This document shows, one piece after another, positions 1 to 50,997 of a DNA stretch of 50,997 nt. Below the pieces are notes generated by a model. The model was not told the origin of the DNA. It searched no databases and saw nothing but the letters and a program-made list of their open reading frames with translations. Source of the DNA: a virus (Duplodnaviria > Heunggongvirae > Uroviricota > Caudoviricetes); the IMG/VR virus record IMGVR_UViG_648276648_000009, positions 1 to 50,997 of that record, one strand, 5' to 3'. Numbering within the stretch: position 1 is the stretch's first letter; every line of letters starts with the position of its first letter. A program made the position numbers and the translations under genes.

Positions 1-361
1 CACGGCTTCCCGCTTCTGGTCTGTCGTCAGTACTTTCGCCCAAGAGCCACCTGAAGCGCCTCTTTATCCAGCATGGCTTCGGCAAGCAGCTTCTTGAGTC
101 TGGCGTTCTCTTCCTCAAGCGACTTCAGGCGCTTAACTTCAGGCACCTCCATACCGCCATACTTCTTACGCCAGGTGTAAAACGTGGCATCGGAAATGGC
201 ATGCTTGCGGCAGAGTTCACGGGCGGGTACCCCAGCTTCGGCTTCGCGGAGAATACTGATGATCTGTTCGTCGGAAAAACGCTTCTTCATGGGGATGTCC
301 TCATGTGGCTTATGAAGACATTACTAACATCGGGGTGTACTAATCAACGGGGAGCAGGTCA
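1..361 (-). mobile_element. IS3-family insertion sequence, partial (continues beyond window start); terminus placed near 353-361 where the minus strand reads TGACCTGCTCCCC
   Basis: OrfA-type transposase ORF at 27-290(-); TG-initiated terminus ~70 bp upstream of orfA start; boundary assigned by eye. Confidence 0.6.
27..290 (-). CDS. IS3-family transposase OrfA (HTH DNA-binding subunit)
   Basis: 87-aa ORF MKKRFSDEQIISILREAEAGVPARELCRKHAISDATFYTWRKKYGG... with C-terminal leucine-zipper-like heptads, typical of IS3/IS407-group OrfA. Confidence 0.85.
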   Translation of the reverse strand: MKKRFSDEQIISILREAEAGVPARELCRKHAISDATFYTWRKKYGGMEVPEVKRLKSLEEENARLKKLLAEAMLDKEALQVALGRKY

Positions 362-3678: not shown

Positions 3679-3698
3679 TAAATTTATTAGTGTAATAT
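3669..3698 (+). promoter_or_regulatory. C1 operator (exact ATTGCTCTAATAAATTT, 3669-3685) overlapping a sigma70-like promoter (-35 TTGCTC, 17-bp spacer, -10 TAATAT) facing the tRNA/tci/ban region
   Basis: Exact match to the 17-bp P1 C1 operator consensus; promoter hexamers read directly. Confidence 0.6.
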
Positions 3699-4351: not shown

Positions 4352-4427
4352 GATGGTGTAGCTCAGCGGTTAGAGCGGTTGACTGTTAATCAACGGGTCG
4401 ATGGTTCAAATCCATCCACCATCGCCA
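4352..4427 (+). tRNA. tRNA-Asn (anticodon GUU)
   Basis: 76-nt cloverleaf: acceptor GATGGTG/CACCATC, anticodon loop CTGTTAA, T-loop GGTTCAAATCC, 3' CCA encoded. Confidence 0.9.
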
Positions 4428-4429
4428 AT

Positions 4430-4505
4430 GCCGGTTTAGCTCAGTTGGTAGAGCGCCTGCCTTGTAAGCAGGATGTCAGCGGTTCGAGTCCGTTAATCGG
4501 CACCA
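4430..4505 (+). tRNA. tRNA-Thr (anticodon UGU)
   Basis: 76 nt; close to E. coli tRNA-Thr as recalled; anticodon loop CTTGTAA; T-loop GGTTCGAGTCC; CCA encoded. Confidence 0.9.
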
Positions 4506-6132: not shown

Positions 6133-6208
6133 GGCCCTTTAGCTCAGTGGTTAGAGCTGGCGACTCATAATCGCACGGTCACCGGTTCAAGTCCGGTAGG
6201 GGCCACCA
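6133..6208 (+). tRNA. tRNA with CAU anticodon, most likely tRNA-Ile2 (lysidine-type) rather than Met
   Basis: 76 nt; near-identical to E. coli ileX-type tRNA as recalled; anticodon loop CTCATAA; CCA encoded. Confidence 0.85.
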
Positions 6209-31280: not shown

Positions 31281-32474
31281 GTGACCTGGGACGATCACAA
31301 GAAGAATTTTGCTCGCCTGGCGCGAGATGGTGGTTACACCATCGCACAATATGCCGCCGAGTTTAATCTCAACCCAAACACCGCACGTCGTTATCTCCGT
31401 GCATTCAAAGAAGACACCGGAACAGCGGACAGCCGTAAGCCAAATAAGCCTGTCAGGAAACCACTAAAAAGCATGATCATTGATCACGCTAATGATCAAC
31501 GTGCAGGTGATCACGTTGTGGCTGAAATGGCTGAAAAACAAAGAGTTAATGCTGTTGTCAGTGCCGCAGTCGAGAACGCTAAGCGCCAAAATAAGCGCAT
31601 AAATGATCGTTCTGATGATCATGACGTGATCACCCGCGCCCACCGTACCTTACGTGATCGCCTGGAACGCGACACCCTGGATGATGATGGTGAACGCTTT
31701 GAATTCGAAGCTGGCGATTACCTGATAGATAACGTTGAAGCGCGGAAGGCCGCGCGCGCTATGTTGCGTCGGTCCGGGGCCGATGTTCTGGAAACCACAC
31801 TTCTGGAAAAGTCTCTTTCTCATCTCCTTATGCTGGAGAACGCCAGGGATACGTGTATTCGCCTGGTGCAGGAAATGCGCGATCAGCAAAAAGACGATGA
31901 TGAAGGTACTCCGCCTGAATACCGTATCGCGAGCATGCTAAACAGCTGTTCCGCGCAGATAAGCAGCCTGATCAACACCATTTACAGCATCCGGAATAAC
32001 TATCGAAAAGAAAGCCGGGAGGCGGAAAAGCACGCTTTGTCTATGGGGCAAGCTGGCATTGTTAAGCTGGCATACGAACGAAAGCGTGAAAATAACTGGT
32101 CAGTGCTGGAAGCAGCTGAATTCATCGAGGCGCATGGCGGGAAAGTGCCGCCCCTGATGCTGGAGCAAATCAAAGCCGATCTGCGTGCTCCTAAGACAAA
32201 TACCGATGATGAGGAAAGGCAAACTGCCGTCGGTGGCCCTTCTCTTGAAGATCTGGACAAAGTTGCGCGAGAACGGGCCGCCAACCGCCGCGCCGATGCT
32301 GCATTGTGGATTGAGCAACGTAGGGAAGAAATCGCCGATATCGTTGATACAGGCGGTTATGGAGATGTTGATACTGAAGGTGTATCAAACGAACCATGGC
32401 TGGAACAAGACCTGGACGAAGACGAGGAGGAAGACGAAGAAGTTACCCGCAAGCTATACGGGGATGATGATTAA
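31281..32474 (+). CDS. pacA: Terminase/pacase small subunit PacA
   Basis: 397 aa, GTG start; contains the pac hexamer cluster; acidic C-terminus. Confidence 0.92.
31474..31632 (+). promoter_or_regulatory. P1 pac site: two clusters of TGATCA/G hexamers (4 left, 3 right) carrying Dam GATC sites, inside pacA
   Basis: Hexamers at 31474, 31481, 31493, 31508 and 31604, 31616, 31627. Confidence 0.85.
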
Positions 32475-33958
32475 TGGCCAGAAGTTGCGTAACGGATCCA
32501 CGTTGGCGCGAGCTGGTGGCGCTATATCGTTATGACTGGATTGCTGCCGCTGATGTTTTGTTCGGCAAAACACCTACCTGGCAGCAGGATCTGATTATTG
32601 AGTCTGTGCAGGAACAGGGTAGCAAGACATCTGTTTCGTCTGGTCACGGTACCGGGAAATCAGACATGACTTCTATCATGATCATGTTGTTCATAATCAT
32701 GTATCCCGGTGCCCGCGCCATTATCGTTGCGAACAAAATTCAGCAGGTAATGACCGGTATATTCAAGTACATCAAGATAAACTGGGCTACTGCCACCAGC
32801 CGTTTTCCATGGCTTGCTGATTATTTTGTTCTGACAGAAACCGCTTTCTATGAGGTTACTGGTAAAGGTGTATGGACTGTAGTACCGAAGGGCTTTCGTC
32901 TGGGAAGTGAAGAAGCTCTCGCCGGTGAACACGCAGATCATCTTCTGTATATTATCGATGAAGCCTCCGGTGTCAGTGATAGAGCTTTCGGTATCATCAC
33001 CGGTGCTCTTACCGGACAGGATAACCGCATCTTATTACTGTCACAGCCTACACGCCCAAGCGGCTATTTCTACGATACTCACCATAAACTGGCCAAGCGT
33101 CCTGGTAACCCTGATGGCGTTTATACGGCGATCACGCTTAACAGTGAGGAATCACCGCTGGTAACGCCAGCATTTATCAAAATGAAGCTGGCGGAGTACG
33201 GCGGGCGTGATAACCCTATGTACATGATTAAGGTACGCGGACTATTCCCTAAATCACAGGATGGCTTCCTTCTTGGACGTGATGAGGTTGAACGTGCGAC
33301 GCGGCGGAAAGTCAAGATTGCCAAAGGATGGGGCTGGCTTGCATGTGTGGACGTTGCTGGTGGTACGGGACGGGATAAGTCCGTTATCAATATCATGATG
33401 GTGTCCGGCCAGAGAAATAAACGCCGTGTAATCAACTATCGAATGCTGGAATACACAGACGTTACAGAAACGCAGCTTGCCGCCAAAATTTTCGCAGAAT
33501 GTAATCCTGAGCGATTCCCAAATATCACCATAGCGATAGACGGCGATGGGCTGGGTAAAGCAACAGCGGATCTGATGTACGAGTATTATGGTATTACCGT
33601 ACAGCGTATACGCTGGGGTAAAAAGATGCATAGCCGTGAAGATAAGAGCCTGTACTTTGATAAACGTGCTTATGCCAATGTTCAAGCCGCAGAGGCCGTA
33701 AAATCTGGTCGTATGAGACTGGATAAGGGTAATGAAACTATTGAGGAAGCGTCGAAAATCCCTGTAGGGATTAACTCCGCAGGTCAATGGAAGGTGATGA
33801 GTAAGGAGGATATGAAGAAAAAACTCAACCTGCACTCACCAGACCATTGGGATACATATTGTTTCGCTATGCTGGCGGATTATGTTCCCCAGGATGAAGT
33901 GCTTAGCGTCGAAGACGAAGCGCAGGTTGATGAAGCTCTGGCATGGCTTAATGAATGA
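32474..33958 (+). CDS. pacB: Terminase large subunit PacB
   Basis: 494 aa; ATPase motif SSGHGTGKS; TAATG coupling to pacA. Confidence 0.92.
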
Positions 33959-33961
33959 ACA

Positions 33962-33978
33962 TTTGCTCTAATGAATTG
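33962..33978 (+). promoter_or_regulatory. C1 operator (TTTGCTCTAATGAATTG) with downstream -10-like TAACTA
   Basis: Core GCTCTAAT conserved; directly after the pacB stop. Confidence 0.5.
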
Positions 33979-34110
33979 TGTTTTTTAACTACCGATGTTA
34001 CATTGAACCTGACCTCTTGCGCCTTGAGGCATTTTCGGTTTATGCTTATCAGGCACCTCATTAAAACGGGTGCCGGGATTGAGACCCCGGATAATGCAAA
34101 AGGCGACACA

Positions 34111-34132
34111 GACGCCAAAAGCGTCTTTTTTT
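34111..34132 (+). terminator. Rho-independent terminator (GACGC-CAAAA-GCGTC then T7)
   Basis: Read directly. Confidence 0.6.
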
Positions 34133-34139
34133 GTGTCAT

Positions 34140-34300
34140 GCCATCGCACAGCCATACGTAGCGTTTAGCTCAGAGATCAATGGTAGTGCTGGCTGGGCTG
34201 CCGAAAGGCAGGCCGGTTCCCTTTTGCGCCGGTAGTCTCAACCCAGTCAGTGCTACCGCCATTGAGATTGAGACCTCACGCGGTAGCTCCTTAAATTAGC
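34140..34300 (+). ncRNA. Structured leader of immI-like module 1; candidate c4-type antisense RNA region
   Basis: Complementary segments CAATGGTAGTGCTGGCTGGG and CCCAGTCAGTGCTACCGCCATTG plus nested hairpins upstream of the icd-like RBS; exact RNA ends not determinable. Confidence 0.35.
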
Positions 34301-34317
34301 AAAAGGAGGCTGCCATT

Positions 34318-34539
34318 GTGGCTACTATCCCTACCCCTGCTCATCCTGAATTTATCTGGCGCTTTTACTCCTGCCAAAAACGTCACTATCACTTCGTTAT
34401 TGCACCGACAGAAGATGAGGCACGTTCTCAGCTTCCTGACGCCCCATGTATTTTCTCTGCCCGTTTTTCCACTGATTCACGCAATTCTCTCAGTTACTGG
34501 TGCCTCCCTGTTAACGCTTCTGCTCAGGAGGGACTATGA
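34318..34539 (+). CDS. icd: Icd-like 73-aa protein, copy 1
   Basis: GTG start after AAAAGGAGG; overlaps the antirepressor start (ATGA); substitutions between the two copies are almost all synonymous in this frame. Confidence 0.65.
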   Translation: MATIPTPAHPEFIWRFYSCQKRHYHFVIAPTEDEARSQLPDAPCIFSARFSTDSRNSLSYWCLPVNASAQEGL

Positions 34540-35648
34540 GAACATCGTTAGTTACCCGTGAAGAGATGATCGAGGCAATTGAACAGCACACTGCCTGTAT
34601 CAGTACCAGGGATATACCTGGCGTTATTGCCAACTACTTCATGATCACCAAACAACTTTACCGGAGAAAGGACAAACACGCAGTTCACCGCATTCTGCTA
34701 ACCGATATCCGTGAATACCTGCTCGAACAGGGTCATCTAAATTACGCAACCGTCGCAGCCGAAGCACGCAAGGAGGCACACAGAATGAAAGCAACTAACG
34801 TTAAATCAGAAAAAATTTATGCACCTTCAGTTCAGGAATCGGAACTGGTGGTTGTTCAGAATCAGCCGGATGAAATTCCCGTTCTGGAATGGCAGGGAGT
34901 ACGTGTCGTGACAACCGAAACTCTTGCTAGAGGGTATGGGGTCGATGAAGCCAATATTCGCAACAATTTGTCTCGCAACCTTGACCGCTTTGAAGAAGGT
35001 AAGCATTACTTTCTTCTAACTGGTTTAAAATTAAGAGAATTTAAGAACAGAGTAACCGGAAGTTACTCTGTTGGTAAGAACGCCAGAAGCCTTACACTCT
35101 GGACAGAGCGCGGCGCTGCACGCATGTCTAAGATCGTGGACACAAATGAAGCATGGGCATTCTTTGAAAAACTGGAAGACAGCTACTTCCGGCAAAAAGA
35201 ACAGCAACCGGTTGCAATCCCCCAAACATTACCAGAAGCCCTACGCCTGGCTGCCGAACTGGCTGAACAAAAGCAGCTTCTGGAACAGAAAGCCCACCAG
35301 CTAAATCAGCAGCTGGTGGCCGCCGCTCCTAAGGTCGATTTTGCCGACCGGGTATCAGTAGCTAAAGGGATCCTGATTGGGAATTTTGCAAAGGTTGTTG
35401 GACTTAAGCAAAATGCGCTGTTTGCCTGGTTACGGGAGAACGGCATCCTGATAGCGTCCGGTGGACGTAAAAATGTGCCGTTCCAGCAGTACATCAACGC
35501 GGGGTATTTCACGGTGAAAGAAGTGGTGCTGGATGATGAAGATGGCTACCAGATACGGTTGACGCCTCAATTAACGGGTAAAGGCCAGCAGTGGTTGACG
35601 CGTAAACTGCTCGATGCTGGCTTGTTAAAACCGGTGGCGGCTGAATAA
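34536..35648 (+). CDS. ant: Phage antirepressor (AntA-like N-terminal domain, ANT/KilAC C-terminal domain), copy 1
   Basis: 370 aa; translationally coupled to the icd-like ORF. Confidence 0.85.
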   Translation: MRTSLVTREEMIEAIEQHTACISTRDIPGVIANYFMITKQLYRRKDKHAVHRILLTDIREYLLEQGHLNYATVAAEARKEAHRMKATNVKSEKIYAPSVQESELVVVQNQPDEIPVLEWQGVRVVTTETLARGYGVDEANIRNNLSRNLDRFEEGKHYFLLTGLKLREFKNRVTGSYSVGKNARSLTLWTERGAARMSKIVDTNEAWAFFEKLEDSYFRQKEQQPVAIPQTLPEALRLAAELAEQKQLLEQKAHQLNQQLVAAAPKVDFADRVSVAKGILIGNFAKVVGLKQNALFAWLRENGILIASGGRKNVPFQQYINAGYFTVKEVVLDDEDGYQIRLTPQLTGKGQQWLTRKLLDAGLLKPVAAE

Positions 35649-35680
35649 TGGAAGAATGCCCGGTTGATGCCGGGCATAAT

Positions 35681-36532
35681 TTATTGCGCGCTTTCGGGGT
35701 TGTCGTTTACTGGCTGCCCCTTCTTGGTTTTACGGCTGCGCGTAACTGATGCGGCTGACTTAACCTTTTTCTCTTCGCGAGTGATGGCAATTTGTTTTTT
35801 TACATTTTCAATATCTGCCAGGCGATATATTTTTGCTTGCGGCCAGCGGTCGCAGATGATCGGTTCTATGGAGTCATAAAGGCTAAATTTTGCTTTTTCG
35901 AATTCACCGTTGATGATAATTCCATCACGGAGAGTTTCATCGCAGATAAACACGCCACACAGTGGCACATGGTAACTAACTGATTTACCATCATTGTAGT
36001 TAGGGCTACTGGAAATGTAGTGGACGCGCAGCATTGTTTCGCTAAAGCCGTGTACGCGCATACGGAATTTTTCATCCTCCGGGTACTGCCTCATTAGCTC
36101 TTTTGTTGCTTCCAGGTTCTCTATGTATTTCGCACTGTGCTCATTGATCCCCGCGCTTTTTTGGATGCGAATGTCCTTATCAATCAGATGAATAATGCGG
36201 CCAGCGGTCATGTTGACGCTGTTCACAGCTTCTGTCTGATAAGTTGTAACCTTGCGCACACCGCGAAGGATGTTAGGCACTGGATATAAAATAGTCTTTG
36301 GGATATTGAGGTCTGGGTACTGTTCCAGTTCCCGCGCCATTAAAGTCCATTTATCAATTTCAGCCTGAATGCTGTCAGTTTCTTTGAACGGTAGAACGAC
36401 AACCGGGCGTACAGGACGACCGTCGCTGGCTGTATCAACGTGTTGGGCGCGTGCAACAGCTTTTTTTAGAAAGAGATCCCTGAAGCTGACGAACTCCTGG
36501 TACAGTTGTTCGCCGTAGACATAATTTATCAT
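35681..36532 (-). CDS. c1: C1 repressor of lysogeny
   Basis: 283 aa starting MINYVYGEQLYQEF, matching P1 C1 as recalled. Confidence 0.95.
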   Translation of the reverse strand: MINYVYGEQLYQEFVSFRDLFLKKAVARAQHVDTASDGRPVRPVVVLPFKETDSIQAEIDKWTLMARELEQYPDLNIPKTILYPVPNILRGVRKVTTYQTEAVNSVNMTAGRIIHLIDKDIRIQKSAGINEHSAKYIENLEATKELMRQYPEDEKFRMRVHGFSETMLRVHYISSSPNYNDGKSVSYHVPLCGVFICDETLRDGIIINGEFEKAKFSLYDSIEPIICDRWPQAKIYRLADIENVKKQIAITREEKKVKSAASVTRSRKTKKGQPVNDNPESAQ

Positions 36533-36626: not shown

Positions 36627-36643
36627 AGATTTATTAGTGCATT
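36627..36643 (-). promoter_or_regulatory. C1 operator-like site, reverse orientation (AGATTTATTAGTGCATT), between coi and c1
   Basis: 14/17 match to the reverse consensus. Confidence 0.45.
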
Positions 36644-36852
36644 TATTGTGAGTCTAACTGGTTAGTTGCCATGAGATATTCGATTGTGTCAGTGAGATCA
36701 TCCAGGTCGTCTTGGGTGATGCGGTACTCCTGATTGGATATCTTTGAGTAGTGTTCAGCAATGGCGCGGGCAGCGTCGGTTTCGGCAGGGTCTACAGATA
36801 AAGCGTTAGAGCAATGTCTAACGTCGTCGATGGTTGGTTGAATGAAAGCCAT
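36643..36852 (-). CDS. coi: Coi (C1 inactivator)
   Basis: 69-aa acidic ORF immediately upstream of c1 on the same strand. Confidence 0.8.
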   Translation of the reverse strand: MAFIQPTIDDVRHCSNALSVDPAETDAARAIAEHYSKISNQEYRITQDDLDDLTDTIEYLMATNQLDSQ

Positions 36853-37684: not shown

Positions 37685-38716
37685 ATGTCCAATTTACTGA
37701 CCGTACACCAAAATTTGCCTGCATTACCGGTCGATGCAACGAGTGATGAGGTTCGCAAGAACCTGATGGACATGTTCAGGGATCGCCAGGCGTTTTCTGA
37801 GCATACCTGGAAAATGCTTCTGTCCGTTTGCCGGTCGTGGGCGGCATGGTGCAAGTTGAATAACCGGAAGTGGTTTCCCGCAGAACCTGAAGATGTTCGC
37901 GATTATCTTCTATATCTTCAGGCGCGTGGTCTGGCAGTGAAAACTATCCAGCAACATTTGGGCCAGCTAAATATGCTTCATCGTCGGTCCGGTCTGCCAC
38001 GACCAAGTGACAGCAATGCTGTTTCACTGGTCATGCGACGGATCCGAAAAGAAAACGTTGATGCCGGTGAACGTGCAAAACAGGCACTGGCGTTCGAACG
38101 CACTGATTTCGACCAGGTTCGTTCACTCATGGAAAATAGCGATCGCTGCCAGGATATACGTAATCTGGCATTTCTGGGGATTGCTTATAACACCCTGTTA
38201 CGTATAGCCGAAATTTCCAGGATCAGGGTTAAAGATATCTCACGTACTGACGGTGGGAGAATGTTAATCCATATTGGCAGAACGAAAACGCTGGTTAGCA
38301 CCGCTGGTGTAGAGAAGGCACTTAGCCTGGGGGTAACTAAACTGGTTGAGCGATGGATTTCTGTCTCTGGTGTAGCTGATGATCCGAATAACTACCTGTT
38401 TTGCCGCGTCAGAAAAAATGGTGTTGCCGCGCCATCATCCACCAGCCAGCTATCAACTCGCGCCCTGGAAGGGATTTTTGAAGCAACTCACCGATTGATT
38501 TACGGGGCAAAAGATGACTCTGGTCAGCGATACCAGGCCTGGTCTGGACATAGTGCCCGTGTCGGTGCCGCGCGAGATATGGCCCGCGCCGGAGTTTCTA
38601 TACCGGAGATCATGCAAGCTGGTGGCTGGACCAACGTAAATATTGTCATGAACTACATTCGTAACCTGGATAGTGAAACGGGGGCAATGGTGCGCCTGCT
38701 GGAAGATGGCGATTAG
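37685..38716 (+). CDS. cre: Cre site-specific tyrosine recombinase
   Basis: 343 aa, MSNLLTVHQNLPALPVDATSDEVRKNLMDMFRDRQAFSEHTWKMLLSVCRSWAAWCKLNN... Confidence 0.98.
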   Translation: MSNLLTVHQNLPALPVDATSDEVRKNLMDMFRDRQAFSEHTWKMLLSVCRSWAAWCKLNNRKWFPAEPEDVRDYLLYLQARGLAVKTIQQHLGQLNMLHRRSGLPRPSDSNAVSLVMRRIRKENVDAGERAKQALAFERTDFDQVRSLMENSDRCQDIRNLAFLGIAYNTLLRIAEISRIRVKDISRTDGGRMLIHIGRTKTLVSTAGVEKALSLGVTKLVERWISVSGVADDPNNYLFCRVRKNGVAAPSSTSQLSTRALEGIFEATHRLIYGAKDDSGQRYQAWSGHSARVGAARDMARAGVSIPEIMQAGGWTNVNIVMNYIRNLDSETGAMVRLLEDGD

Positions 38717-41166: not shown

Positions 41167-41199
41167 ATTGCTCTAATAAATTTGATTTATTGGAGCAAA
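41167..41199. promoter_or_regulatory. Inverted pair of C1 operators (exact ATTGCTCTAATAAATTT at 41167-41183, then reverse-oriented ATTTATTGGAGCAAAT)
   Basis: Read directly between the lipoprotein gene and immI-like module 2. Confidence 0.65.
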
Positions 41200-41259
41200 T
41201 AACCTACCATTGCGCACTGCCCTATTGATCTTCCTGTCGTTCAGGCTTATAGTCCCACC

Positions 41260-41495
41260 GTCGTAGCAAATTCTGCGACCGGGTTTGACAGCCTGAATGT
41301 ACATGCGGACAACCGCAGATTTCCGATATTGCGGTATTTTTGTGTCCGTAAACCACGTTACGCCCGAATTATGGTGGGGCGTGATGGGGAGGCTTCGGCC
41401 TGCTGGTTTCATGTACGCCAGTCTGTCAACCCCGTCACGTCCTGCCACCTGTTTGACAGCGGGTAGCAGGTTGTTAAACCTGTACATGAGGCCGT
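41260..41495 (+). ncRNA. Structured leader of immI-like module 2 with a three-element sense/antisense/sense arrangement; candidate c4-type antisense RNA
   Basis: TTGATC-N17-TATAGT promoter at 41226-41254; GTTTGACAGCCTGAATGTACATG (41283-41305) is complementary to CATGTACGCCAGTCTGTCAAC (41406-41430), which can also pair with TTGACAGC...TGTACATGAGG overlapping the icd-like RBS. Confidence 0.4.
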
Positions 41496-41499
41496 AACT

Positions 41500-41721
41500 A
41501 TGGTTAATGCCAATCCTTGCGCACGCCCTGAATTTATCTGGCGCTTTTACTCCTGCCAGAAACGTCACTATCACTTCGTTATTGCACCGACAGAAGATGA
41601 GGCTCGCTCTCAGCTTCCGGATGCTCCCTGCATTTTCTCTGCCCGTTTTTCCACTGATTTGCGCAACTCTCTCAGTTACTGGTGTCTCCCTGTTAACGCT
41701 TCTGCTCAGGAGGGACTATGA
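41500..41721 (+). CDS. icd: Icd-like 73-aa protein, copy 2
   Basis: Identical to copy 1 except the first 9 residues and one S-to-L change; ATGA overlap with the antirepressor. Confidence 0.65.
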   Translation: MVNANPCARPEFIWRFYSCQKRHYHFVIAPTEDEARSQLPDAPCIFSARFSTDLRNSLSYWCLPVNASAQEGL

Positions 41722-42836
41722 GAACGTCATTAGTCACCCGTGAAGAGATGATCGAGGCAATTGAACAGCATACCGCCTGTATCAGTACCAAGGATATACC
41801 GGGCGTTATTGCCAACTACTTCATGATCACCAAACAACTTTACCGGAGAAAGGACAAGAACGCGGTTCACCGTATCCTGTTGTCTGATATCCGCGAATAC
41901 CTGCTCGAACAGGGTCATCTGAATTACGCAACCGTCGCAGCCGAAGCACGCAAGGAGGCACACAGAATGAAAGCAACTAACGTTAAATCAGAAAAAATTT
42001 ATGCACCTTCAGTTCAGGAATCGGAACTGGTGGTTGTTCAGAATCAGCCGGATGAAATTCCCGTTCTGGAATGGCAGGGAGTACGTGTCGTGACAACCGA
42101 AACTCTTGCTAGAGGGTATGGGACAGAAACAATCCGTATTCGCCAAAATCATCATGAGAACAAAGTACGCTTTGTTGAAGGGAAGCACTTTTTCAAAGTT
42201 GAAGGAGAATCATTGCGCGAGTTGAAGCACAGAGTAGCTTTAAACTACTCTGTAAAAATTGCTCGCAATGTTCGCTCACTCACCCTCTGGACAGAACGCG
42301 GCGCAGCCCGCCACGCTAAAATGCTCGAAACCGATCAGGCATGGGCATTCTTTGAAAAACTGGAAGACAGCTACTTCCGACAAAAAGAACAGCAACCGGT
42401 TGCAATCCCCCAGACGCTTCCAGAAGCCCTACGCCTGGCTGCCGAACTGGCTGAACAAAAGCAGCTTCTGGAACAGAAAGCCCACCAGCTAAATCAGCAG
42501 CTGGTGGCCGCCGCTCCTAAAGTCGATTTTGCCGACCGGGTATCAGTAGCTAAAGGGATCCTGATTGGGAATTTTGCAAAGGTTGTTGGACTTAAGCAAA
42601 ACGCGCTGTTTGCCTGGTTACGGGAGAACGGCATCCTGATTGCGTCCGGCGGGCGTAAAAATGTACCGCTCCAGCAATACATCAACGCCGGGTATTTCAC
42701 GGTGAAAGAAGTGGTGCTGGATGATGAAGATGGCTACCAGATACGGTTGACGCCTCAATTAACGGGTAAAGGCCAGCAGTGGTTGACGCGTAAACTGCTC
42801 GATGCTGGCTTGTTAAAACCGGTGGCAGCTGAATAA
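41718..42836 (+). CDS. ant: Phage antirepressor, copy 2 (mosaic: termini near-identical to copy 1, central ~70 aa divergent)
   Basis: 372 aa; direct comparison with 34536-35648. Confidence 0.85.
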   Translation: MRTSLVTREEMIEAIEQHTACISTKDIPGVIANYFMITKQLYRRKDKNAVHRILLSDIREYLLEQGHLNYATVAAEARKEAHRMKATNVKSEKIYAPSVQESELVVVQNQPDEIPVLEWQGVRVVTTETLARGYGTETIRIRQNHHENKVRFVEGKHFFKVEGESLRELKHRVALNYSVKIARNVRSLTLWTERGAARHAKMLETDQAWAFFEKLEDSYFRQKEQQPVAIPQTLPEALRLAAELAEQKQLLEQKAHQLNQQLVAAAPKVDFADRVSVAKGILIGNFAKVVGLKQNALFAWLRENGILIASGGRKNVPLQQYINAGYFTVKEVVLDDEDGYQIRLTPQLTGKGQQWLTRKLLDAGLLKPVAAE

Positions 42837-42967
42837 TGGAAGAATGCCCGGTTGAGATGCCGGGCATGATTAAATGTCTCTTCAGCACATTACCGAAGTT
42901 CAATCTTCAACCAAGAAGTGTACTCGCATACGATTATCGCAATAAAATACTTGAAGTTTTATAAACT

Positions 42968-43441
42968 GTGAGTATCATTGCCCATATGAAAACATCCTAT
43001 TTAACTATATTGGCTTTCCATATTCGCGATTTTCGCGAGAAGTATGGTGTTACTCAATCAGACATTGCATCTGGCCTTGGGATAACAAGTGCCGGTTGGG
43101 GAAAAATTGAAAATGGTAAGTCCTCTCTCTCTGTAGAGAATATGATGAAATTCTGTAAAATTATTAATATTGATGCAACCATACTTCTTGATATTTCCAC
43201 GAAATCGGCAAAAAACTTAATCAAATGTGGATGGAGTGTATCTTATTCTCCTGTTGAGGATGATAATTTAATAGACGGAAAAAATATATTTGCTAAAACA
43301 CATGGAATGAATAACGTCATGAGGAAATTTATAGACGGGAAACTTGGAAGTGTTTTAGACAAAGAATTTGATGACATTATTATGAAATATGCAACATTTT
43401 ATATGGTTGTAGCTAAAAATCTAAGAGATGACTTGATTTAA
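42968..43441 (+). CDS. XRE-family helix-turn-helix regulator with C-terminal extension
   Basis: HTH LTILAFHIRDFREKYGVTQSDIASGLGITSAGWGKIENGKSSLSVENMMKFCKIINI; AT-rich codon usage. Confidence 0.65.
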   Translation: MSIIAHMKTSYLTILAFHIRDFREKYGVTQSDIASGLGITSAGWGKIENGKSSLSVENMMKFCKIINIDATILLDISTKSAKNLIKCGWSVSYSPVEDDNLIDGKNIFAKTHGMNNVMRKFIDGKLGSVLDKEFDDIIMKYATFYMVVAKNLRDDLI

Positions 43442-43456
43442 AAATGGAGTGTACAT

Positions 43457-44209
43457 ATGGCATACAGACAAGACAGCGATCTTGAATTCCTAGCTAAATG
43501 TAGCGACCGTGATCTTGATGATTTAGTTAACCTATTGATTTATGATAACGATGGCAAAAAAAGATGGACTGAAGAGTTATCTAACAATCGACAATATAAG
43601 GAATTTGTACCAAGACATAGCGTATATTGGAGAGAAATTGCTGCTGAAATTCAATGTTATGGTGGAAATACCATAGCAACTCTCTTGCGTGGTGGTAAAG
43701 GGGTCTGCTACAGAGAAATTCTCATTGATGTATGCAATAAGCTAAAGGTTAATTTCAATGCCAAGAGCCGAATAGAGGTTATTGAACAAAATCTTCTATT
43801 AAAAATTCTCAGCGACTCTCTAGATAACATGTCATCCGAAGATATAAAAGTTTTTGCCATGGAACTTGGATTGGATGAAGTTACAAGATTTACTCCTGAG
43901 GCAGTTCTATCTGCCTTCCAATATATTTTCAGGGCCGGCGGTTTCAGATCTTATCAGGTAACTCTTAAATTTGCGAATCTTTTACTAAAAATTTTAATTG
44001 GACGCGGTTTGACACTCGCAGGTAATCAAATACTCGTAAAAGCATTATCTATTTTAACAGGCCCAATTGGTTGGACTATAACAGCCGCATGGACCATTGT
44101 AGATGTGGGAGGAACTGCTTATCGAGTAACAATTCCTGCTGTTATTCAAGTTGCTGTACTAAGGGCGAAAGTCAATAATAATATTAAAGACAGCGATATT
44201 ACCTTGTGA
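43457..44209 (+). CDS. YaaW/DUF3944-like protein with C-terminal glycine-rich hydrophobic segment
   Basis: 250 aa; YDNDGK...CYGGNTIATLLRGG...YREILIDVCNKL and C-terminal VDVGGTAYRVTIPAVIQVAVL resemble YaaW (UPF0174) as recalled; GGAGTG SD. Confidence 0.6.
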   Translation: MAYRQDSDLEFLAKCSDRDLDDLVNLLIYDNDGKKRWTEELSNNRQYKEFVPRHSVYWREIAAEIQCYGGNTIATLLRGGKGVCYREILIDVCNKLKVNFNAKSRIEVIEQNLLLKILSDSLDNMSSEDIKVFAMELGLDEVTRFTPEAVLSAFQYIFRAGGFRSYQVTLKFANLLLKILIGRGLTLAGNQILVKALSILTGPIGWTITAAWTIVDVGGTAYRVTIPAVIQVAVLRAKVNNNIKDSDITL

Positions 44210-45003: not shown

Positions 45004-48000
45004 TTATGCGTATTGTTGGATGACGGCCAGAACGTCCGCCACGTTGTGTTTTGTCTCGATAATCCACCAGTTACCTGGGAAGTCGCTGTTCTTCGCCTTC
45101 GCTGGCAGCCAGCGAGCGCCGAATTTCGCCTTGATTGCGTCTTTCGCACGGAAAAGAACGCCTTTCATGCCTGAGGCTTCCTGAAGCCCAAATACCTCGC
45201 CAGCGGCGAATTTTGGTGCGTACATCATCTTCAGGTCGGCGGTGGATACGCGATAATTCAGACCAAGAGACTGAGCTATGCTGGTGGCATCACCCTGTAT
45301 TGATGATAACTCTTCTTGTTTCTCGTTTCTGGCGGCAATTTCTTCCTCCGTGATGTTGCCAAGGGCCAGGTTTATCCGATCAGCGTCGGCCTGTTTCTCT
45401 TCATCGGTGCGCCCGGCAAGAACCGTGTTAATTCTCTGCAATATCTCCACATGATTCTTGCGCATGCTGAGCAATTCCGGCGTAACCTCGTTAAGATCCA
45501 CCAGCCCAAGGATGGCAAGGTCGGAAAACATTGATACTAGGTTGTAGGTCATGCGATAGCTGAGTTGGCCATAGGCTGATGGCAACTGCACCGCATCCAT
45601 TTGATAGGCATCCATAAATTTAGAGCCGTCGTTTACGACATCCGCAATTGCAGGTGTGATTTTCCCTGTGGTGGCGGCCTCCCTGATTGCTGTTACCCAT
45701 GATTGAGTCAGTGCGGCGACTGCATGATTCAGATTGGCTTCCCGTTCTGCTGCGATGCGCGCGCTTGCTGAGTCCATTGCCTGCTTGATCTCGGCTTTAT
45801 TGCTGTAAATGCCGATGGTGCCAAACTGTGCTGTGGTGATCTCATAATCTGACGCCCGGAACTCATGGGTACCGAAAATGGCATTGGTGACCTCAAGTTC
45901 AGAATCCCCGTTACGAGTAGCCCCCTGGCTTGTTTTCTCCGGCATTTTTGCGATCGCATCCGCTATTTTCTCCTGAATTGCTTCAGGGGATAGCGTATCT
46001 CCGTATGACGCGATTACATCGCCATAATTGGAGCCAAACAATTCAACCAGGAATGTTTCTGCCGAACGGATCTGGCGGTTATTCCCTTCCGACATCATAC
46101 CAAGCACCCATTTTGCAATTGACGACTTCAGCGCGCCGTCACGGCGATCCGGGTAAACCGCATGCTTCAGTGGGGCCGTATAGGAACCAACAAAATCAAT
46201 GCTATAGCCTGACTCTGTAGTCTGAACGCCGTATGAGTCAGTGATTTTGATCATGCCGCGCTGCTGGAAACGGTAGAAATCGTCACAGGAAATGATGTCG
46301 TTAATCCCGGCGATGGAGACGCCACCACTGATTTTCTGCATAACAGCATCTTCATCGGGAGTTACATCAACCTGTTTATCCAGCGTCTTCACATCCCAGT
46401 TACCCGATTTGGTGCCTTTGAAGGTAAAGATGATCTCCACGTCTGCGCGCTGGCTGTCGAAGTCCAGCGACTTAATGCGAACGATATCACCGGCACAATC
46501 ATAGTATTGGCCTACACGCCATGAGCGATCGCCGATAACAAGGAACTCATTCGCATGGTTAACCAGATCAGGATCAACATCCAGAATGCCTTTATTTATT
46601 GCATCCTCCACCAGCGGGCGCAGGCGTTTGATATCCGTCGCGGCCTTCTGAGTACGGTTCAATAATTTCTCATAGCGGGAGATGGCCTGAGAGATATTAG
46701 CCTTGCGCTGAATGGCGCTTTTCAACGACGCGCGATACTGTGCTAACAACATACGGTCTGTGTGATGGACGCTACCCCAGCGGGCTTTCCAGTCTGCGTT
46801 ATCAGCTGCTTTGGCCATTACCGCCTGTTTGAATTTGGCGACGTCGGCGGTGGTCTTTTCAAGTTCCGCTTTGCTTCGCTCCAATTCAGCGGTAAGTACC
46901 TCCACATCCTCACCAGCTGCGTGCTGCGCCTTGATGTAGTTCTGAAGGTCGATAGTAGCCTGTTCTTTCTGGCGAGCGCGTTTCGCAGCTTTCGCCTTAT
47001 CCATTTGAACCTGCATCATTACCAGACGTTCGCCGTCATCCTTCGCGGTATACATCTGCATTTCGATCATGTCATTGGCGTCGGCGTTCTCCATTTCTGA
47101 CTTATCTGAACGGAGGATATCGGAGATCCAGCCTGCTTTACGCTTCAGCGTCTTCAGTCGGTATTCATCGAAAGACCCCTTGCCGCAGTAGTAGTGAACG
47201 CGAACGCTTGCACGGTTGGAGCCAACTCGTGCACCGCGACCGTTACGTTGTGCGATACTGGCTGGTGTCCACGGCAACGTCAGGTGGTGGATATCCGTCG
47301 TTCCTCGATGCAGGTTGATACCCACCTCTGCCTTTTTGTTGCAGATGATGATCGGAGTCCGGCCCTCCTGGAAGTCGGCTGCAATCTTTTCCAGACCGCC
47401 CAACGACATTTCATTTTGCTGCGCGATATAGGCGTCATACAGAGCCATTTGCTCGTTGTATTTCGCTATCTGTGCATCTGTTGGTTCATCCGGTAGCTCT
47501 TTCGGCGGTTTAACCGCTTTCAGTTTCTTACCGGTTTTACCTGCCTCGGCAACCGTCTGAGCATTCAGGATCCCCACCTTTGAAGGTTCAAGGTCTAGAG
47601 CATTGCAGATAATGCGCTTGAGCTTCTGGTGCTGCGTTTTTTCATCGGTGAAGATGACTTGCTTACCTTCCGGGAAAAACTCCTTCAGCGTGGCGATCAG
47701 CTTCGCGTATTTCGGCGTAACGGGGTGAGTTACGGTCAGTTCGTCAATGCCAAACCTGGCCAGGCGCTTATTCACTTCCTGCTCGAACGCTTCCGGAACC
47801 TGCAACTGAATAAACTCGCCCTTATCTATCAGGGAGTATTGCGATTGCTGCGTGATTGAATCATCACTGTCGTCGTCTTCGCTGGTGGCTTGTTTAGGCA
47901 AACTGTCCGCCAGCTGCTGCACCGCATCGGCGTACTCCGGCAGGAAACGATAGGTGATCCGGCGATAGTACAGGTCCATGTCAGTACATACGCGGTCCAT

Positions 48001-50496
48001 ATCCCTGATTATTGAGAAGATCGGACGGGCTTTCTCGTGCTCAATCACGCCGTCTTCATTGACCGAGGTCGTTACGCCATTGTTGGCTTTGGCCGCCGCT
48101 TCCGCCTGCTGACGCAATTCTTCATACGCCGCCAGTTGTTCTTCAGTAAGTGGTGCATCCTGCTGGTGTTCGTCCAGCTCCGGGATCTCCACGGTATCCT
48201 TAACGTCTTCCGCCGTTTTAAGCGTTACCCAGCGATGGAATATACCGCGCAGCGCATCAAGGTTTTCAAAGCCCACCAGCGCCATTTTTTCTTCAACTTC
48301 ACCGCTGATTTTCTGTACCGTTTCCAGCCTGGTCTTGCCGAAGAATTTAACGAAGTCATCAGGACCGTAGATCCCCATCTTCTGCCAGTATTCCTTCGGC
48401 AGCACATGAGAAAGCATGTTGTATGCATCGATCGGGGTGTTAACGACTGGCGTTGCAGTCAGGAGAACCGGTCCGCGCCCACCATTCTTTTTCATCAGGT
48501 ACGCGTTTTTAATTGCCATATCCCGCGCCGATTGCGCCACCGCGCTGGTGGGCAGATAGGCCAGTTGTGACGCTTCGCGACCATTTTTATAGCTATTGCG
48601 GTAGTTGTGACCTTCGTCAGCGATCACACTATCGAAGCCCATATCCTCAAAGTACGGATACTTCTCTGCTTTTTCGGTGCCGGTATCTGAATACTCCGAC
48701 AATACCCGGCGACGCGCGGCCTCTTTGCGGTGGGAGTCGGAGTCCATTGCGCTGGCTACGCGTCCGGCGGCAACGAAGTCATAAAGCATATCCTGTGCAT
48801 GCTCATCTACGGTGTCATCACGTAGCGGAATGCGGGCGTATTGTTCTTTGGTAAACACGACTGCACGGTAATTTGAGTGCGGGATCGCGTTCATCCGCGC
48901 CGTGATAGTGGCTTCATCTGCCAGCTTAAGAGCATCGCGCATAACTGGAGTGCCATCAGTACCAAGAACAGGTTTACCGTTCTCATCGAGCACCGGCACC
49001 TGGCGAATCTGATCGCCATCCATCAGCACATCAAGACCGACGAACAGGTAGTTACTGAATGCCTCTTCACTCAGGAATTCTTTTGCTTCGTAATACCAGT
49101 TTTCCAGCACTGATTTAGGCACTACATACGCAGTACGGGTGGAGCGACCGTTCTCATAGTTGAACGCCTCAAGCGCCAGCGCGGTCGTGGTTTTACCCAG
49201 CCCGGTGCCGAAGCCCAGGATGCCGCGCCCATCTTCGGACAGTCGGCGCACCTCGCTATTCTGGTAATCAAATGGCTGGCGCTTACCGCTTAATCCCTTC
49301 AACCCAAGCGGATCGCCAGAGTGTTCATACGGGATATTGCTATTGAACACATCGTTGTATTTGGCAACCAGTTCATCGTAGCGATCGTGCGTCTTGATCC
49401 ACTTATTGAACTGGTCCTCAAGCAGTGCCATCTGCTCGCGGTAGCCGTTCGCCGTCGCGCTATCTTTGCCACCGATACGCGCACCATTGAGATACTTTTC
49501 CAGCTGTGCCGGGAACCCGGTCGCGTTTTCACCTGATTTACGGTCCCACTCGTAGCGGATCTCGCCTGTTTCTTTATCCTTGCGCTGGACGACACCGTAT
49601 CGGTGCCCGACGAACAGACCATCACCACCGTGATAGGTGTCAGAAACCATTTCGTCGCCTTCCAGCTGCACTGACTGCACATAGCGAAGATCTGGATAGC
49701 CGTTTTCCTGCAAAAATTCCAGAATGACGGAACGGTCGAACCAACGGCTATTGAGCTTAAAGCGGATATTCTCTGCTGGCGTCTTGATGCGCTTCTCTTC
49801 GATCGCTGCCAGCTGATTAAGGACGTTGTTCTTTACTGGACCGTCGGGGAGTGTGGCAAGGAATTCCTGTTTTGGTGCCACTATCTCGTTAATGTCGCCG
49901 CTGGTGGCGCGGGCGAACGGAACAATCCCGCCATACGGTGAAACCGCAATGCCAGGGGTGCTGGCCAATAAATTAAGCAACTCGTCATCACTGGCTGGCA
50001 GTTCGCCGGTAAACGCAAGGCGGAAATCATCGAGCTGGATTGGATCGCGAGTGAGATCACTGTAGAGATAACGCAGGGTGTCCTGATAGCTGGTGGAGTC
50101 ATAACTGGCGCTGGAATCATGCGTAACCAGTTTTCCTGTCAGCTCGTCAGAAATAGTGCCATCCAGCTTAATTGCACCACGGAAAGCAAACCAGGCGCGC
50201 GCACCGCTCCCCGATAATTTCGCTATCGGACCGCGACCGGGGTTACCAAAACGGTCAATCTCTGCCTGCAAACGGGATACCAGAGAAAGGCGCTGCTGTT
50301 CGATTTGTTCAGCACTATGCCCGGCGGCCTTCATGTCCTGATATTCAATTAACATCCGGCCAATCATCGCCCCGCGATACAAGCGTTCACGGTATTTTTC
50401 AGGCTGGCTGTTAATCCAGTCCACCAGCTGCACCATATCGTCGCTGATTGATGTGGTGTACTTATCGCGGACATTTGCCATCTGGGTAAATGTCAT
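45004..50496 (-). CDS. darB: Large DExH/SNF2-type helicase-domain protein (DarB-like defence-against-restriction protein), possibly 5'-truncated by IS26
   Basis: 1830 aa; helicase motifs GFGTGLGKTTTALA, VIADEGHNYRN, QRNGRGARVG; no methyltransferase motif; frame open from the first Met up to the IS26 boundary. Confidence 0.7.
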   Translation of the reverse strand: MTFTQMANVRDKYTTSISDDMVQLVDWINSQPEKYRERLYRGAMIGRMLIEYQDMKAAGHSAEQIEQQRLSLVSRLQAEIDRFGNPGRGPIAKLSGSGARAWFAFRGAIKLDGTISDELTGKLVTHDSSASYDSTSYQDTLRYLYSDLTRDPIQLDDFRLAFTGELPASDDELLNLLASTPGIAVSPYGGIVPFARATSGDINEIVAPKQEFLATLPDGPVKNNVLNQLAAIEEKRIKTPAENIRFKLNSRWFDRSVILEFLQENGYPDLRYVQSVQLEGDEMVSDTYHGGDGLFVGHRYGVVQRKDKETGEIRYEWDRKSGENATGFPAQLEKYLNGARIGGKDSATANGYREQMALLEDQFNKWIKTHDRYDELVAKYNDVFNSNIPYEHSGDPLGLKGLSGKRQPFDYQNSEVRRLSEDGRGILGFGTGLGKTTTALALEAFNYENGRSTRTAYVVPKSVLENWYYEAKEFLSEEAFSNYLFVGLDVLMDGDQIRQVPVLDENGKPVLGTDGTPVMRDALKLADEATITARMNAIPHSNYRAVVFTKEQYARIPLRDDTVDEHAQDMLYDFVAAGRVASAMDSDSHRKEAARRRVLSEYSDTGTEKAEKYPYFEDMGFDSVIADEGHNYRNSYKNGREASQLAYLPTSAVAQSARDMAIKNAYLMKKNGGRGPVLLTATPVVNTPIDAYNMLSHVLPKEYWQKMGIYGPDDFVKFFGKTRLETVQKISGEVEEKMALVGFENLDALRGIFHRWVTLKTAEDVKDTVEIPELDEHQQDAPLTEEQLAAYEELRQQAEAAAKANNGVTTSVNEDGVIEHEKARPIFSIIRDMDRVCTDMDLYYRRITYRFLPEYADAVQQLADSLPKQATSEDDDSDDSITQQSQYSLIDKGEFIQLQVPEAFEQEVNKRLARFGIDELTVTHPVTPKYAKLIATLKEFFPEGKQVIFTDEKTQHQKLKRIICNALDLEPSKVGILNAQTVAEAGKTGKKLKAVKPPKELPDEPTDAQIAKYNEQMALYDAYIAQQNEMSLGGLEKIAADFQEGRTPIIICNKKAEVGINLHRGTTDIHHLTLPWTPASIAQRNGRGARVGSNRASVRVHYYCGKGSFDEYRLKTLKRKAGWISDILRSDKSEMENADANDMIEMQMYTAKDDGERLVMMQVQMDKAKAAKRARQKEQATIDLQNYIKAQHAAGEDVEVLTAELERSKAELEKTTADVAKFKQAVMAKAADNADWKARWGSVHHTDRMLLAQYRASLKSAIQRKANISQAISRYEKLLNRTQKAATDIKRLRPLVEDAINKGILDVDPDLVNHANEFLVIGDRSWRVGQYYDCAGDIVRIKSLDFDSQRADVEIIFTFKGTKSGNWDVKTLDKQVDVTPDEDAVMQKISGGVSIAGINDIISCDDFYRFQQRGMIKITDSYGVQTTESGYSIDFVGSYTAPLKHAVYPDRRDGALKSSIAKWVLGMMSEGNNRQIRSAETFLVELFGSNYGDVIASYGDTLSPEAIQEKIADAIAKMPEKTSQGATRNGDSELEVTNAIFGTHEFRASDYEITTAQFGTIGIYSNKAEIKQAMDSASARIAAEREANLNHAVAALTQSWVTAIREAATTGKITPAIADVVNDGSKFMDAYQMDAVQLPSAYGQLSYRMTYNLVSMFSDLAILGLVDLNEVTPELLSMRKNHVEILQRINTVLAGRTDEEKQADADRINLALGNITEEEIAARNEKQEELSSIQGDATSIAQSLGLNYRVSTADLKMMYAPKFAAGEVFGLQEASGMKGVLFRAKDAIKAKFGARWLPAKAKNSDFPGNWWIIETKHNVADVLAVIQQYA

Positions 50497-50535: not shown

Positions 50536-50997
50536 GGCACTGTTGCAAAGTTAGCGATGAGGCAGCCTTTTGTCTTATTCAAAGGCCTTACATTTCAAAA
50601 ACTCTGCTTACCAGGCGCATTTCGCCCAGGGGATCACCATAATAAAATGCTGAGGCCTGGCCTTTGCGTAGTGCACGCATCACCTCAATACCTTTGATGG
50701 TGGCGTAAGCCGTCTTCATGGATTTAAATCCCAGCGTGGCGTTGATTATCCGTTTCAGTTTGCCATGATCGCATTCAATCACGTTGTTCCGGTACTTAAT
50801 CTGTCGGTGTTCAACGTCAGACGGGCACCGGCCTTCGCGTTTGAGCAGAGCAAGCGCGCGACCATAGGCGGGCGCTTTATCCGTGTTGATGAATCGTGGG
50901 ATCTGCCACTTCTTCACGTTGTTGAGGATTTTACCCAGAAACCGGTATGCAGCTTTGCTGTTACGACGGGAGGAGAGATAAAAATCGACAGTGCGGC
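50536..50997 (-). mobile_element. IS26 (IS6 family), partial; terminal inverted repeat GGCACTGTTGCAAA at 50536-50549, element continues beyond window end
   Basis: Characteristic 14-bp IR and Tnp26 C-terminal sequence. Confidence 0.9.
50588..50997 (-). CDS. tnpA: IS26 transposase Tnp26, C-terminal part (N-terminus off-window)
   Basis: ...NVKKWQIPRFINTDKAPAYGRALALLKREGRCPSDVEHRQIKYRNNVIECDHGKLKRI...RLVSRVFEM matches IS26 transposase as recalled. Confidence 0.92.
   Translation of the reverse strand, partial: RTVDFYLSSRRNSKAAYRFLGKILNNVKKWQIPRFINTDKAPAYGRALALLKREGRCPSDVEHRQIKYRNNVIECDHGKLKRIINATLGFKSMKTAYATIKGIEVMRALRKGQASAFYYGDPLGEMRLVSRVFEM

Follow-up and report, generated by a model that had tools for sequence, protein, structure and literature searches.

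A c4-icd-ant cassette between pacB and c1

The DNA analysed here (the window; 50,997 nucleotides (nt), IMG/VR record IMGVR_UViG_648276648_000009) comes from a P1-like phage-plasmid and carries, between pacB and the C1 repressor gene c1, a cassette related to the immI operon of P1, hereafter module 1 (33962–35677). The distance from the pacB stop codon to the c1 stop codon is 24 base pairs (bp) in P1 and 1722 bp in the window, which therefore holds about 1.72 kb of extra DNA at this junction. The cassette consists of a C1 operator, an a1/b1 RNA with a terminator, c4, the a2/b2 sites, icd, ant and a hairpin facing c1, in that order (Table 1), and all of its open reading frames (ORFs) are intact. 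The neighbouring C1 is almost identical to P1 C1.100, with 281 of the 284 aligned positions conserved, stop included, and three differing. A second cassette, module 2, is located further downstream in the window.

The original prediction, made from the sequence alone, had placed such a module at this junction, where pacB of P1 is followed directly by c1. It had listed a C1 operator, a terminator, a highly structured leader, an icd-like ORF of 73 amino acids (aa) and a translationally coupled antirepressor, and had proposed looking for complementarity between the leader and the icd ribosome-binding site. All of these elements were found where they had been placed, the complementarity included. 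The reading as a complete operator/c4/icd/ant module beside c1 thus stands, whereas the implied rarity of the arrangement is not supported; nor is the cassette an immI that has moved (see below).

None of the cassette elements is attributable to chance. The canonical immI is found between the sim/upf genes and kilA-repL, and module 1, which lies elsewhere, is a paralogous copy. We consider it very probable that the stretch between pacB and c1 is an intact and portable immI-type cassette of about 1.7 kb, and that it represents an additional copy of the P1 c4-icd-ant1/ant2 operon.

Table 1. Features of the two cassettes and of the neighbouring region, in window coordinates.
Feature	Position	Strand	Remarks
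pacA	31281–32474	+	
pacB	32474–33958	+	
C1 repressor operator TTTGCTCTAATGAATTG	33962–33978	+	14/17 match to the 17-bp consensus, TGCTCTAAT core intact; positional equivalent of P1 Oc4/Op51
Putative C1-controlled promoter	33976–34004	+	−35 TTGTGT, 17-nt spacer, −10 TACATT; proposed by analogy with the P1 annotation
Putative second (constitutive) promoter	34017–34046	+	−35 TTGCGC, 18-nt spacer, −10 TATGCT; proposed from the D6 alignment
IsrK-type short RNA / a1-b1 element	34053–34131	+	Two hairpins, then intrinsic terminator; a1 in the loop of the second hairpin
c4 antisense RNA gene, D6-type scaffold	34176–34263	+	Rfam C4 (RF01695), 75 bits (gathering score 45), matched over the whole model
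C4 targets on icd-ant mRNA	34268–34309	+	a2 TTGAGAC 34268–34274; b2 GCAAAAGG 34299–34306; fully complementary to a' and b' over 7 and 8 nt
icd homologue, 73 aa, GTG start	34318–34539	+	P1 Icd homology; NCBIfam phage_ICD_like
ant1-type antirepressor, 370 aa	34536–35648	+	ATGA-coupled to icd; KilAC/ANT domain
Terminator hairpin ATGCCCGG-TTGA-TGCCGGGCAT	35656–35677	.	Between convergent ant and c1; 3' boundary of the cassette; terminator scan
c1 repressor gene	35681–36532	-	Presumed Ant target and operator-binding protein; NCBIfam phage_rep_C1 equivalog, 612 bits
coi	36643–36852	-	
loxP	about 37235		
cre	37685–38716	+	
Module 2 cassette	41167–42867	+	Flanked by mat and lxc, at the site of res-mod in P1
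Module 2 operator	41167–41183	+	Perfect C1 operator
Module 2 a1/b1	41285–41305	+	Rfam c4-a1b1, 57.9 bits
Module 2 c4	41367–41452	+	Rfam C4, 70.7 bits
Module 2 icd, 73 aa	41500–41721	+	
Module 2 ant, 372 aa	41718–42836	+	
Module 2 hairpin	42844–42867		

The c4 RNA, its target sites and the upstream element

The leader of module 1 (34053–34330) is strongly folded relative to shuffled sequences (z = −5.6), and the minimum free energy structure of its c4 RNA has an energy of −46.4 kcal/mol. In this fold the two recognition segments are exposed: b' (CCUUUUGC; CCTTTTGC in the DNA, 34220–34227) in a hairpin loop, and a' (GUCUCAA; GTCTCAA in the DNA, 34235–34241) in a single-stranded stretch. Exact complements of a' and b' are found upstream of c4, as a1 (TTGAGAC, 34079–34085) and b1 (GCAAAAGG, 34096–34103), and downstream of it as a2 and b2. 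The b2 site, with which b' pairs, overlaps the icd Shine-Dalgarno (SD) sequence AAGGAGG (34303–34309). Across the three c4 scaffolds described below, 11 of 23 consensus pairs in the c4 stems are kept through double substitutions.

The annotation of relatives from RefSeq/PGAP includes a coding sequence (CDS) of 39 aa, called as an “ash family protein” (e.g. 23601–23720 of the CH4797 plasmid), that corresponds to 34180–34299 (+) of the window and lies wholly inside the c4 RNA gene. The 39-aa ORF has no match in NCBIfam, and the call is either spurious or the counterpart of orf45 of the Salmonella prophage Gifsy-1.

The region just upstream of c4 (34053–34131) matches the Rfam isrK model (RF01394) with 59 bits against a threshold of 50 and ends in an intrinsic terminator. 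The same two hairpins are matched weakly by the c4-a1b1 model (RF03163; 22 bits, E = 0.0017). From this overlap it appears that what Rfam groups as the IsrK family is the a1/b1 decoy of D6-type c4 modules. In the window the two matches coincide within 34040–34131 (+). In the Rfam table C4 and c4-a1b1 belong to clan CL00128, and isrK has no listed clan.

Icd and the antirepressor

The 73-aa ORF shares 81% identity with P1 Icd across 64 aa (BLASTP, E = 1e-40) and matches NCBIfam phage_ICD_like (NF033153) with 49.8 bits, the cut-off being 25; it has no Pfam match. The N-terminus of this Icd is D6-like and the remainder resembles that of module 2. As in P1, the stop codon of icd and the start codon of ant overlap in an ATGA.

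The encoded Ant is 62% identical to P1 Ant1. Conservation is found in the N-terminal region, where the 110 aa specific to Ant1 are shared with P1 Ant, and in the KilAC (ANT) domain (PF03374, 109 bits). The middle of the protein is an ORF6N domain (PF10543), which was not detected in P1 Ant1, whose middle sequence is unrelated. An in-frame Ant2-type start is found at 34785 (M84), preceded by the SD sequence AAGGAGG (34770–34776) and in a context near-identical to that of the P1 ant2 start; Ant1 and Ant2 are thus candidate products of two in-frame starts in module 1.

The ORF6N middle (34940–35130 in the window, Ant residues about 135–200, and the module 2 equivalent) is the most divergent segment between alleles. 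Its identity ranges from 66 to 100% among RCS47, module 2 and the IMG/VR alleles, and the cassettes are otherwise 95–100% identical. With C1 nearly invariant, this divergence suggests domain swapping or diversifying selection.

Operator, promoters and terminators

The module 1 operator aligns with the operators of P1 and P7 (Oc4/Op51) and of module 2. The site is conserved in every allele at pacB–c1 and matches the consensus at 15 of 17 positions in relatives at the same place. Within the window 14 matches to the C1 operator with at most three mismatches were found, compared with 0.22 expected from shuffled sequences. Outside the two cassettes, 12 further operator-like sites at this threshold are located at 3669–3696 (a bivalent pair), 13728, 17352–17417, 19493, 30655, 36627, 37091, 37174, 38734 and 39211. 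Their scatter fits a dispersed C1 regulon like that of P1.

Two promoters are proposed upstream of the leader, purely from positional analogy with P1 and D6. In the first, the −35 hexamer and the 3' end of the operator share bases, as they do in P1 P2c4/P51a, whose hexamers are of like quality. The second would be the counterpart of P1 P1c4/P51b and of TTGCGC-N18-TATATT in D6, and the start predicted from it, at about 34053, coincides with the first position of the Rfam isrK match. Across the pacB–c1 alleles, the region with the operator and the putative promoters is conserved.

A terminator scan identified an intrinsic terminator between a1/b1 and c4, with a stem at 34110–34126 followed by a T-run. 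The hairpin at the 3' boundary of module 1 also closes module 2, whereas the immI of P1 and P7 end differently.

Proposed mode of action and alternatives

For immunity in which an antisense RNA determines specificity, P1 and P7 serve as the textbook example. The c4/icd/ant mechanism of P1 was reportedly the subject of work by Citron, Biere, Heinrich and Schuster. In the GenBank annotation of P1 the a/b sites are given as C4 targets for repression of icd-ant translation. The roles of c4 RNA and of Ant1/Ant2, and the classical genetics that tie the Ant of P1 and P7 to C1, have been summarised (PMC8546580).

By homology with the immI of P1, module 1 most likely forms the same operator/C4/icd/Ant circuit. 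Whereas the presence, intactness, homology, complementarity and co-variation of its parts were observed directly, promoter use, RNA processing, binding of Ant to C1 and an ecological role of the cassette are inferred. Transcription would start at the promoter overlapping the C1 operator, which would be repressed in a lysogen, and at the second promoter just downstream. Along the transcript, the IsrK-type element with its decoys a1/b1 and a leaky terminator would precede the c4 RNA. Once processed, to about 77 nt as in P1-type operons, C4 would pair through a'/b' with a2/b2 on the same mRNA, where b2 covers the icd ribosome-binding site, and with icd translation blocked in this way the ATGA-coupled ant1/ant2 would not be expressed either. 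Where a C4 is missing or does not match, Icd and Ant would be made and Ant would inactivate the adjacently encoded C1.

Several points weigh against this interpretation. The operator of module 1, with 14 of 17 positions matching, is among the window's weaker sites. The two proposed promoters score poorly against the consensus (7/12), and a stringent sigma-70 scan upstream of the leader called neither of them. The start codon of icd is GTG, compared with ATG in most alleles. The model requires transcription to continue past the terminator at 34110–34126; read-through of such a terminator is known for P1 and for the IsrK of Gifsy-1. Because the ORF6N middle is unlike that of P1 Ant and not constant among alleles, C1 may not be the only target of module 1 Ant, or not its target at all. 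Finally, the coexistence of a canonical immI with module 1 in the window's own genome is extrapolated from the nearest relatives, since the canonical locus is outside the window and the best relative is 99.4%, not 100%, identical over module 2.

A less likely alternative is mainly positive control as in Gifsy-1, in which the short IsrK-type RNA would turn on antirepressor translation, either by acting in trans on the read-through transcript or by titrating C4, the cassette then being an induction trigger and not an immunity lock. The upstream element does pass the Rfam isrK threshold and its a1/b1 are perfect decoys for a'/b'. A precedent exists in Gifsy-1, where read-through of IsrK gives an inactive isrK-orf45-anrP mRNA which short IsrK activates in trans (PMC4825925). 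However, a separate icd with b2 on its SD sequence is the arrangement of P1, for which repression by C4 is established, whereas Gifsy-1 has no icd and its anrP is coupled to an ORF in the c4-like region. The two mechanisms could also operate side by side. Since the element passes the isrK model, and since the short IsrK of Gifsy-1 activates an antirepressor, a decoy or activator role of the 34053–34131 RNA is plausible, and it would be compatible with repression by C4.

It is also conceivable, but improbable, that module 1 Ant acts on another repressor or on co-resident prophages, or that the cassette has a defence or abortive role via Icd. The replacement of the P1 Ant middle by ORF6N, in the very segment that varies most between alleles, would fit a different target, as would the near-invariance of C1, which the variation of Ant does not obviously track. 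Yet the two ends of the protein, the Ant1-specific N-terminal part and the C-terminal KilAC domain, are conserved with P1 Ant, for which genetics point to C1 (PMC8546580), and the cassette itself is headed by a C1 operator.

Co-variation of recognition loops and targets

Module 2 is 89% identical to module 1 in Icd and 90% in Ant. Its recognition pair is a different one, with a P1-type a (TTGACAG) and a new b (GTACATG), and its a1/a'/a2 and b1/b'/b2 all match one another. In the res-mod slot the cassette is followed by genes for a helix-turn-helix protein (157 aa) and a YaaW/DUF3944 protein (250 aa) at 42968–44209 (+). This block is rare, being at least 80% covered in 4 PLSDB records and 7 Escherichia coli genomes.

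A total of 79 related IMG/VR loci (L013–L091) were retrieved by Icd alignment, and 77 cassettes were scored for matching between loops and targets. All four target sites track the loops in every one of the 77, exactly in 50 and with single G.U pairs in 27. The 673R5-type alleles were confirmed by alignment and a targeted check, all 27 of 27 having the four sites and pairing with one G.U. Three c4 scaffolds occur among the IMG/VR loci, namely P1/P7, D6 and 673R5-type, and variation within a scaffold is essentially confined to a' and b'.

At pacB–c1 alone, five combinations of a and b were found, with the c4 scaffold, the operator and the promoter region constant. The combination of the window (a TTGAGAC, b GCAAAAGG) occurs at 13 loci and that of RCS47 (TTGAGAC, GTCAAAGG) at 7; a TTGGAAC is combined with b GCAAAAGG at 7 loci and with GTCAAAGG at 4, and the 673R5 type (TTGGCCT, GTCTAAGG) accounts for 27. 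P1, P7, D6 and module 2 differ from module 1 at these positions, and each time all sites change together. Crude estimates of loop–target duplex energies are −29 to −33 kcal/mol for cognate and −14 to −25.5 kcal/mol for non-cognate pairs, the cognate duplexes being better by 3.6–18.6 kcal/mol.

Such co-variation of loops and targets strongly indicates selection on the RNA–RNA interaction, and it suggests that the immunity specificities form an orthogonal family. It also speaks against a dead remnant. That module 1 is a decaying, non-functional product of recombination with a D6-like phage would agree with its mosaic make-up (a leader 95% identical to D6 over 328 nt, an Ant that is not D6-like), its weak promoters and its GTG start, but is very hard to reconcile with intact ORFs and correct overlaps, with loops and four target sites that co-vary over five alleles at pacB–c1, and with a cassette present in 309 plasmids of several genera, and the pseudogene reading was rejected.

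Cassettes of this kind are not confined to pacB–c1 but occupy at least four loci in P1-like elements, with many pairings of a and b. Among the IMG/VR loci they were also found in the mat–lxc slot (L075, L076), inverted between cre and mat (L083, L086) and before kilA-repL (L039, L057), and a D6-type c4 is found at the canonical immI position in some contigs. One 42-kb contig (L020; IMGVR_UViG_2698536372_000019) has two tandem cassettes right after pacB, with icd starts at 3501 and 5067. The same contig also gives L084 and L088, and so carries four or more cassettes.

Prevalence and coexistence with the canonical immI

The original prediction had implied that the arrangement is rare, which its distribution does not support. 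Module 1 is present in 309 PLSDB records from several genera (at least 80% of a 1801-nt query), with 98.2–100% identity to the query among the 30 matches listed. The uninterrupted, P1-type pacB–c1 junction was found in 314 of the 703 P1-like PLSDB records, of which the 309 carriers of the cassette make up about 44%. Phages RCS47 and JL22 have the cassette at pacB–c1 as well. The large ORF is labelled “ant” in the RCS47 record, and RefSeq labels “Icd-like protein” and “antirepressor Ant” at this position. Venturini et al. (2019), with mention of RCS47, noted that the pacB–c1 junction had received ant and “two short hypothetical orfs”, and found icd-ant1/2 homologues also in the res-mod slot of pSvP1 (PMC6906374). 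Neither c4 nor the operator nor the target sites are mentioned in the published descriptions.

Since the cassette is common, annotated and already in the literature, an unusual arrangement is not supported, and module 1 is best filed as a further c4-icd-ant member at a non-canonical locus, a largely ordinary feature. In the searchable literature, which leaves most subscription journals outside its coverage, we found no published analysis of the c4 gene, operator or target sites of the extra copies. A search for multiple c4 cassettes in phage-plasmids found only the study by Venturini et al. (2019), and with the same limit on coverage an earlier description is possible. The co-varying specificity layer thus appears to be undescribed, and the multi-cassette pattern with combinatorial specificity may be the part that is new.

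Two relatives carry the pacB–c1 cassette together with a canonical immI. RCS54_p is 100% identical over the module 1 cassette, has the canonical icd-ant-kilA-repL block as well, and carries an IS3000 insertion at the place that module 2 occupies in the window. The CH4797 plasmid, the best match to module 2 (99.4% identity), has three cassettes with three specificities: at pacB–c1 (D6-type), at mat–lxc and at the canonical position (P7 type). A search with the icd-ant 5' region gave 1042 places in 682 PLSDB records. Among 29 carriers of cassette-type icd-ant in a spread sample of PLSDB, 17 have two such places and 5 have three. Relocation of the phage's only immI from before kilA-repL to beside c1 was therefore rejected: the canonical locus lies beyond the window and some P1-like plasmids do show a single icd-ant place, but with both loci kept in RCS54_p and the CH4797 plasmid, two or three places in 22 of the 29 sampled carriers and two cassettes in the window itself, this reading has very little chance of being right.

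The loops of module 1 match neither module 2 nor the P7-type canonical immI of relatives, and each cassette would for this reason have an independent specificity, acting as a lock-and-key channel of its own. A lysogen would be protected against the Ant of any incoming phage that carries one of its c4 types, each cassette adding a lock. Conversely, where the infecting element meets a lysogen lacking one of its c4 types, the unmatched Ant could break immunity, so that each cassette would also serve as an extra key.

A broader proposal can be made, on which we are close to undecided and lean slightly against. Portable cassettes running from operator to terminator would occupy at least four loci, up to three or more per genome, with shuffled loops and targets (at least five a, at least eight b and three scaffolds in the present sample), as parts of a multi-channel lock-and-key arms race in which module 1 is one channel, and IsrK and c4-a1b1 would be the same decoy element.

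Module 1 alone adds little, being a further copy of a known operon that is widespread and already in print. The pattern may matter more: about half of P1-like plasmids possess two or three of these operons, whose C4 loops do not match one another, and loops and targets co-vary cleanly between alleles. In E. coli and Salmonella, resistance genes are now known to be commonly carried by P1-like phage-plasmids. Provided that every cassette works, the set carried would determine which P1-like elements coexist in a cell, invade it or induce each other, which would bear on the spread and stability of resistance-carrying elements. It would furthermore offer a ready-made set of orthogonal natural RNA repressor–target pairs.

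Other features of the window

An IS1222 frameshift element is present at the left edge of the window (1–60, −). At the right edge are an IS26 terminal repeat (GGCACTGTTGCAAA, 50536–50549) and an IS26-like transposase gene (50588–50917, −). The adjacent darB ORF (45004–50496) encodes 1830 aa, compared with 2255 aa in the CH4797 plasmid, and was probably truncated at its 5' end by IS26. Three tRNA genes on the plus strand (4352–4424, 4430–4502 and 6133–6205) correspond to tRNA-Asn, tRNA-Thr and tRNA-Ile in the annotation of the CH4797 plasmid.

Comparison with known systems

One of the closest known systems is the immI of P1 and P7. Module 1 has in common with it a C1 operator overlapping the −35 hexamer of a promoter (putative in module 1), a1/b1 followed by a terminator-like hairpin, the three-helix fold of c4, b2 on the icd SD sequence, an Icd of 73 aa, the ATGA overlap, an in-frame Ant2 start at codon 84 and a C-terminal KilAC domain. 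It differs in its position at pacB–c1, in the D6-type c4 scaffold and a/b sequences, in the 3' terminator, in an upstream element that scores as isrK and not as c4-a1b1, and in the ORF6N middle of Ant.

RCS47, pTZ20_1P and further P1-like phage-plasmids have the same genes at the same position. Over 91% of the query the identity to RCS47 is 95%; unlike module 1, RCS47 has GTCAAAGG in place of GCAAAAGG in b1, b' and b2, and it carries a different ORF6N allele.

Phage D6 resembles module 1 over 34052–34379, a stretch of 328 nt with 95% identity that covers a1/b1, c4, a2/b2 and the first icd codons, and the a/b recognition loops of the two are identical. D6 has no P1-type C1 operator upstream, and its module lies in the context ref ... 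pmgF. Its antirepressor belongs to the Rha family (Phage_pRha) and is 23% identical to that of module 1, which consists of ORF6N and KilAC. Since the leader is D6-like, the remainder of icd and ant is closest to module 2 and the 3' hairpin is common to both cassettes, module 1 is, as judged from these alignments, a mosaic of a P1-type operator, a D6-type c4 with its loops and an ORF6N-bearing Ant, bounded by the operator and the hairpin.

The isrK-orf45-anrP region of Salmonella Gifsy-1 shows the same succession of an RNA matching the isrK model, a region with a C4/CI-like processed RNA and an antirepressor gene, and its leaky terminator gives short and long transcripts. The processed RNA of about 80 nt, STnc1160, is complementary to IsrK and lies downstream of it (PMC4825925). 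Gifsy-1 differs from module 1 in having neither icd nor a C1 operator, and its published regulation is activation by the short RNA.

Hershko-Shalev et al. described seqA of satellite phage P4 as a structural homologue of IsrK and likened STnc1160 to the CI RNA of P4 (PMC4825925). Like the C4 proposed for module 1, the P4 CI RNA (seqA/seqB/seqC) is an antisense RNA processed from the leader of its own operon, with complementary sites on both sides. CI, however, acts through premature transcription termination of the replication operon and not through a block of antirepressor translation (PMC4825925).

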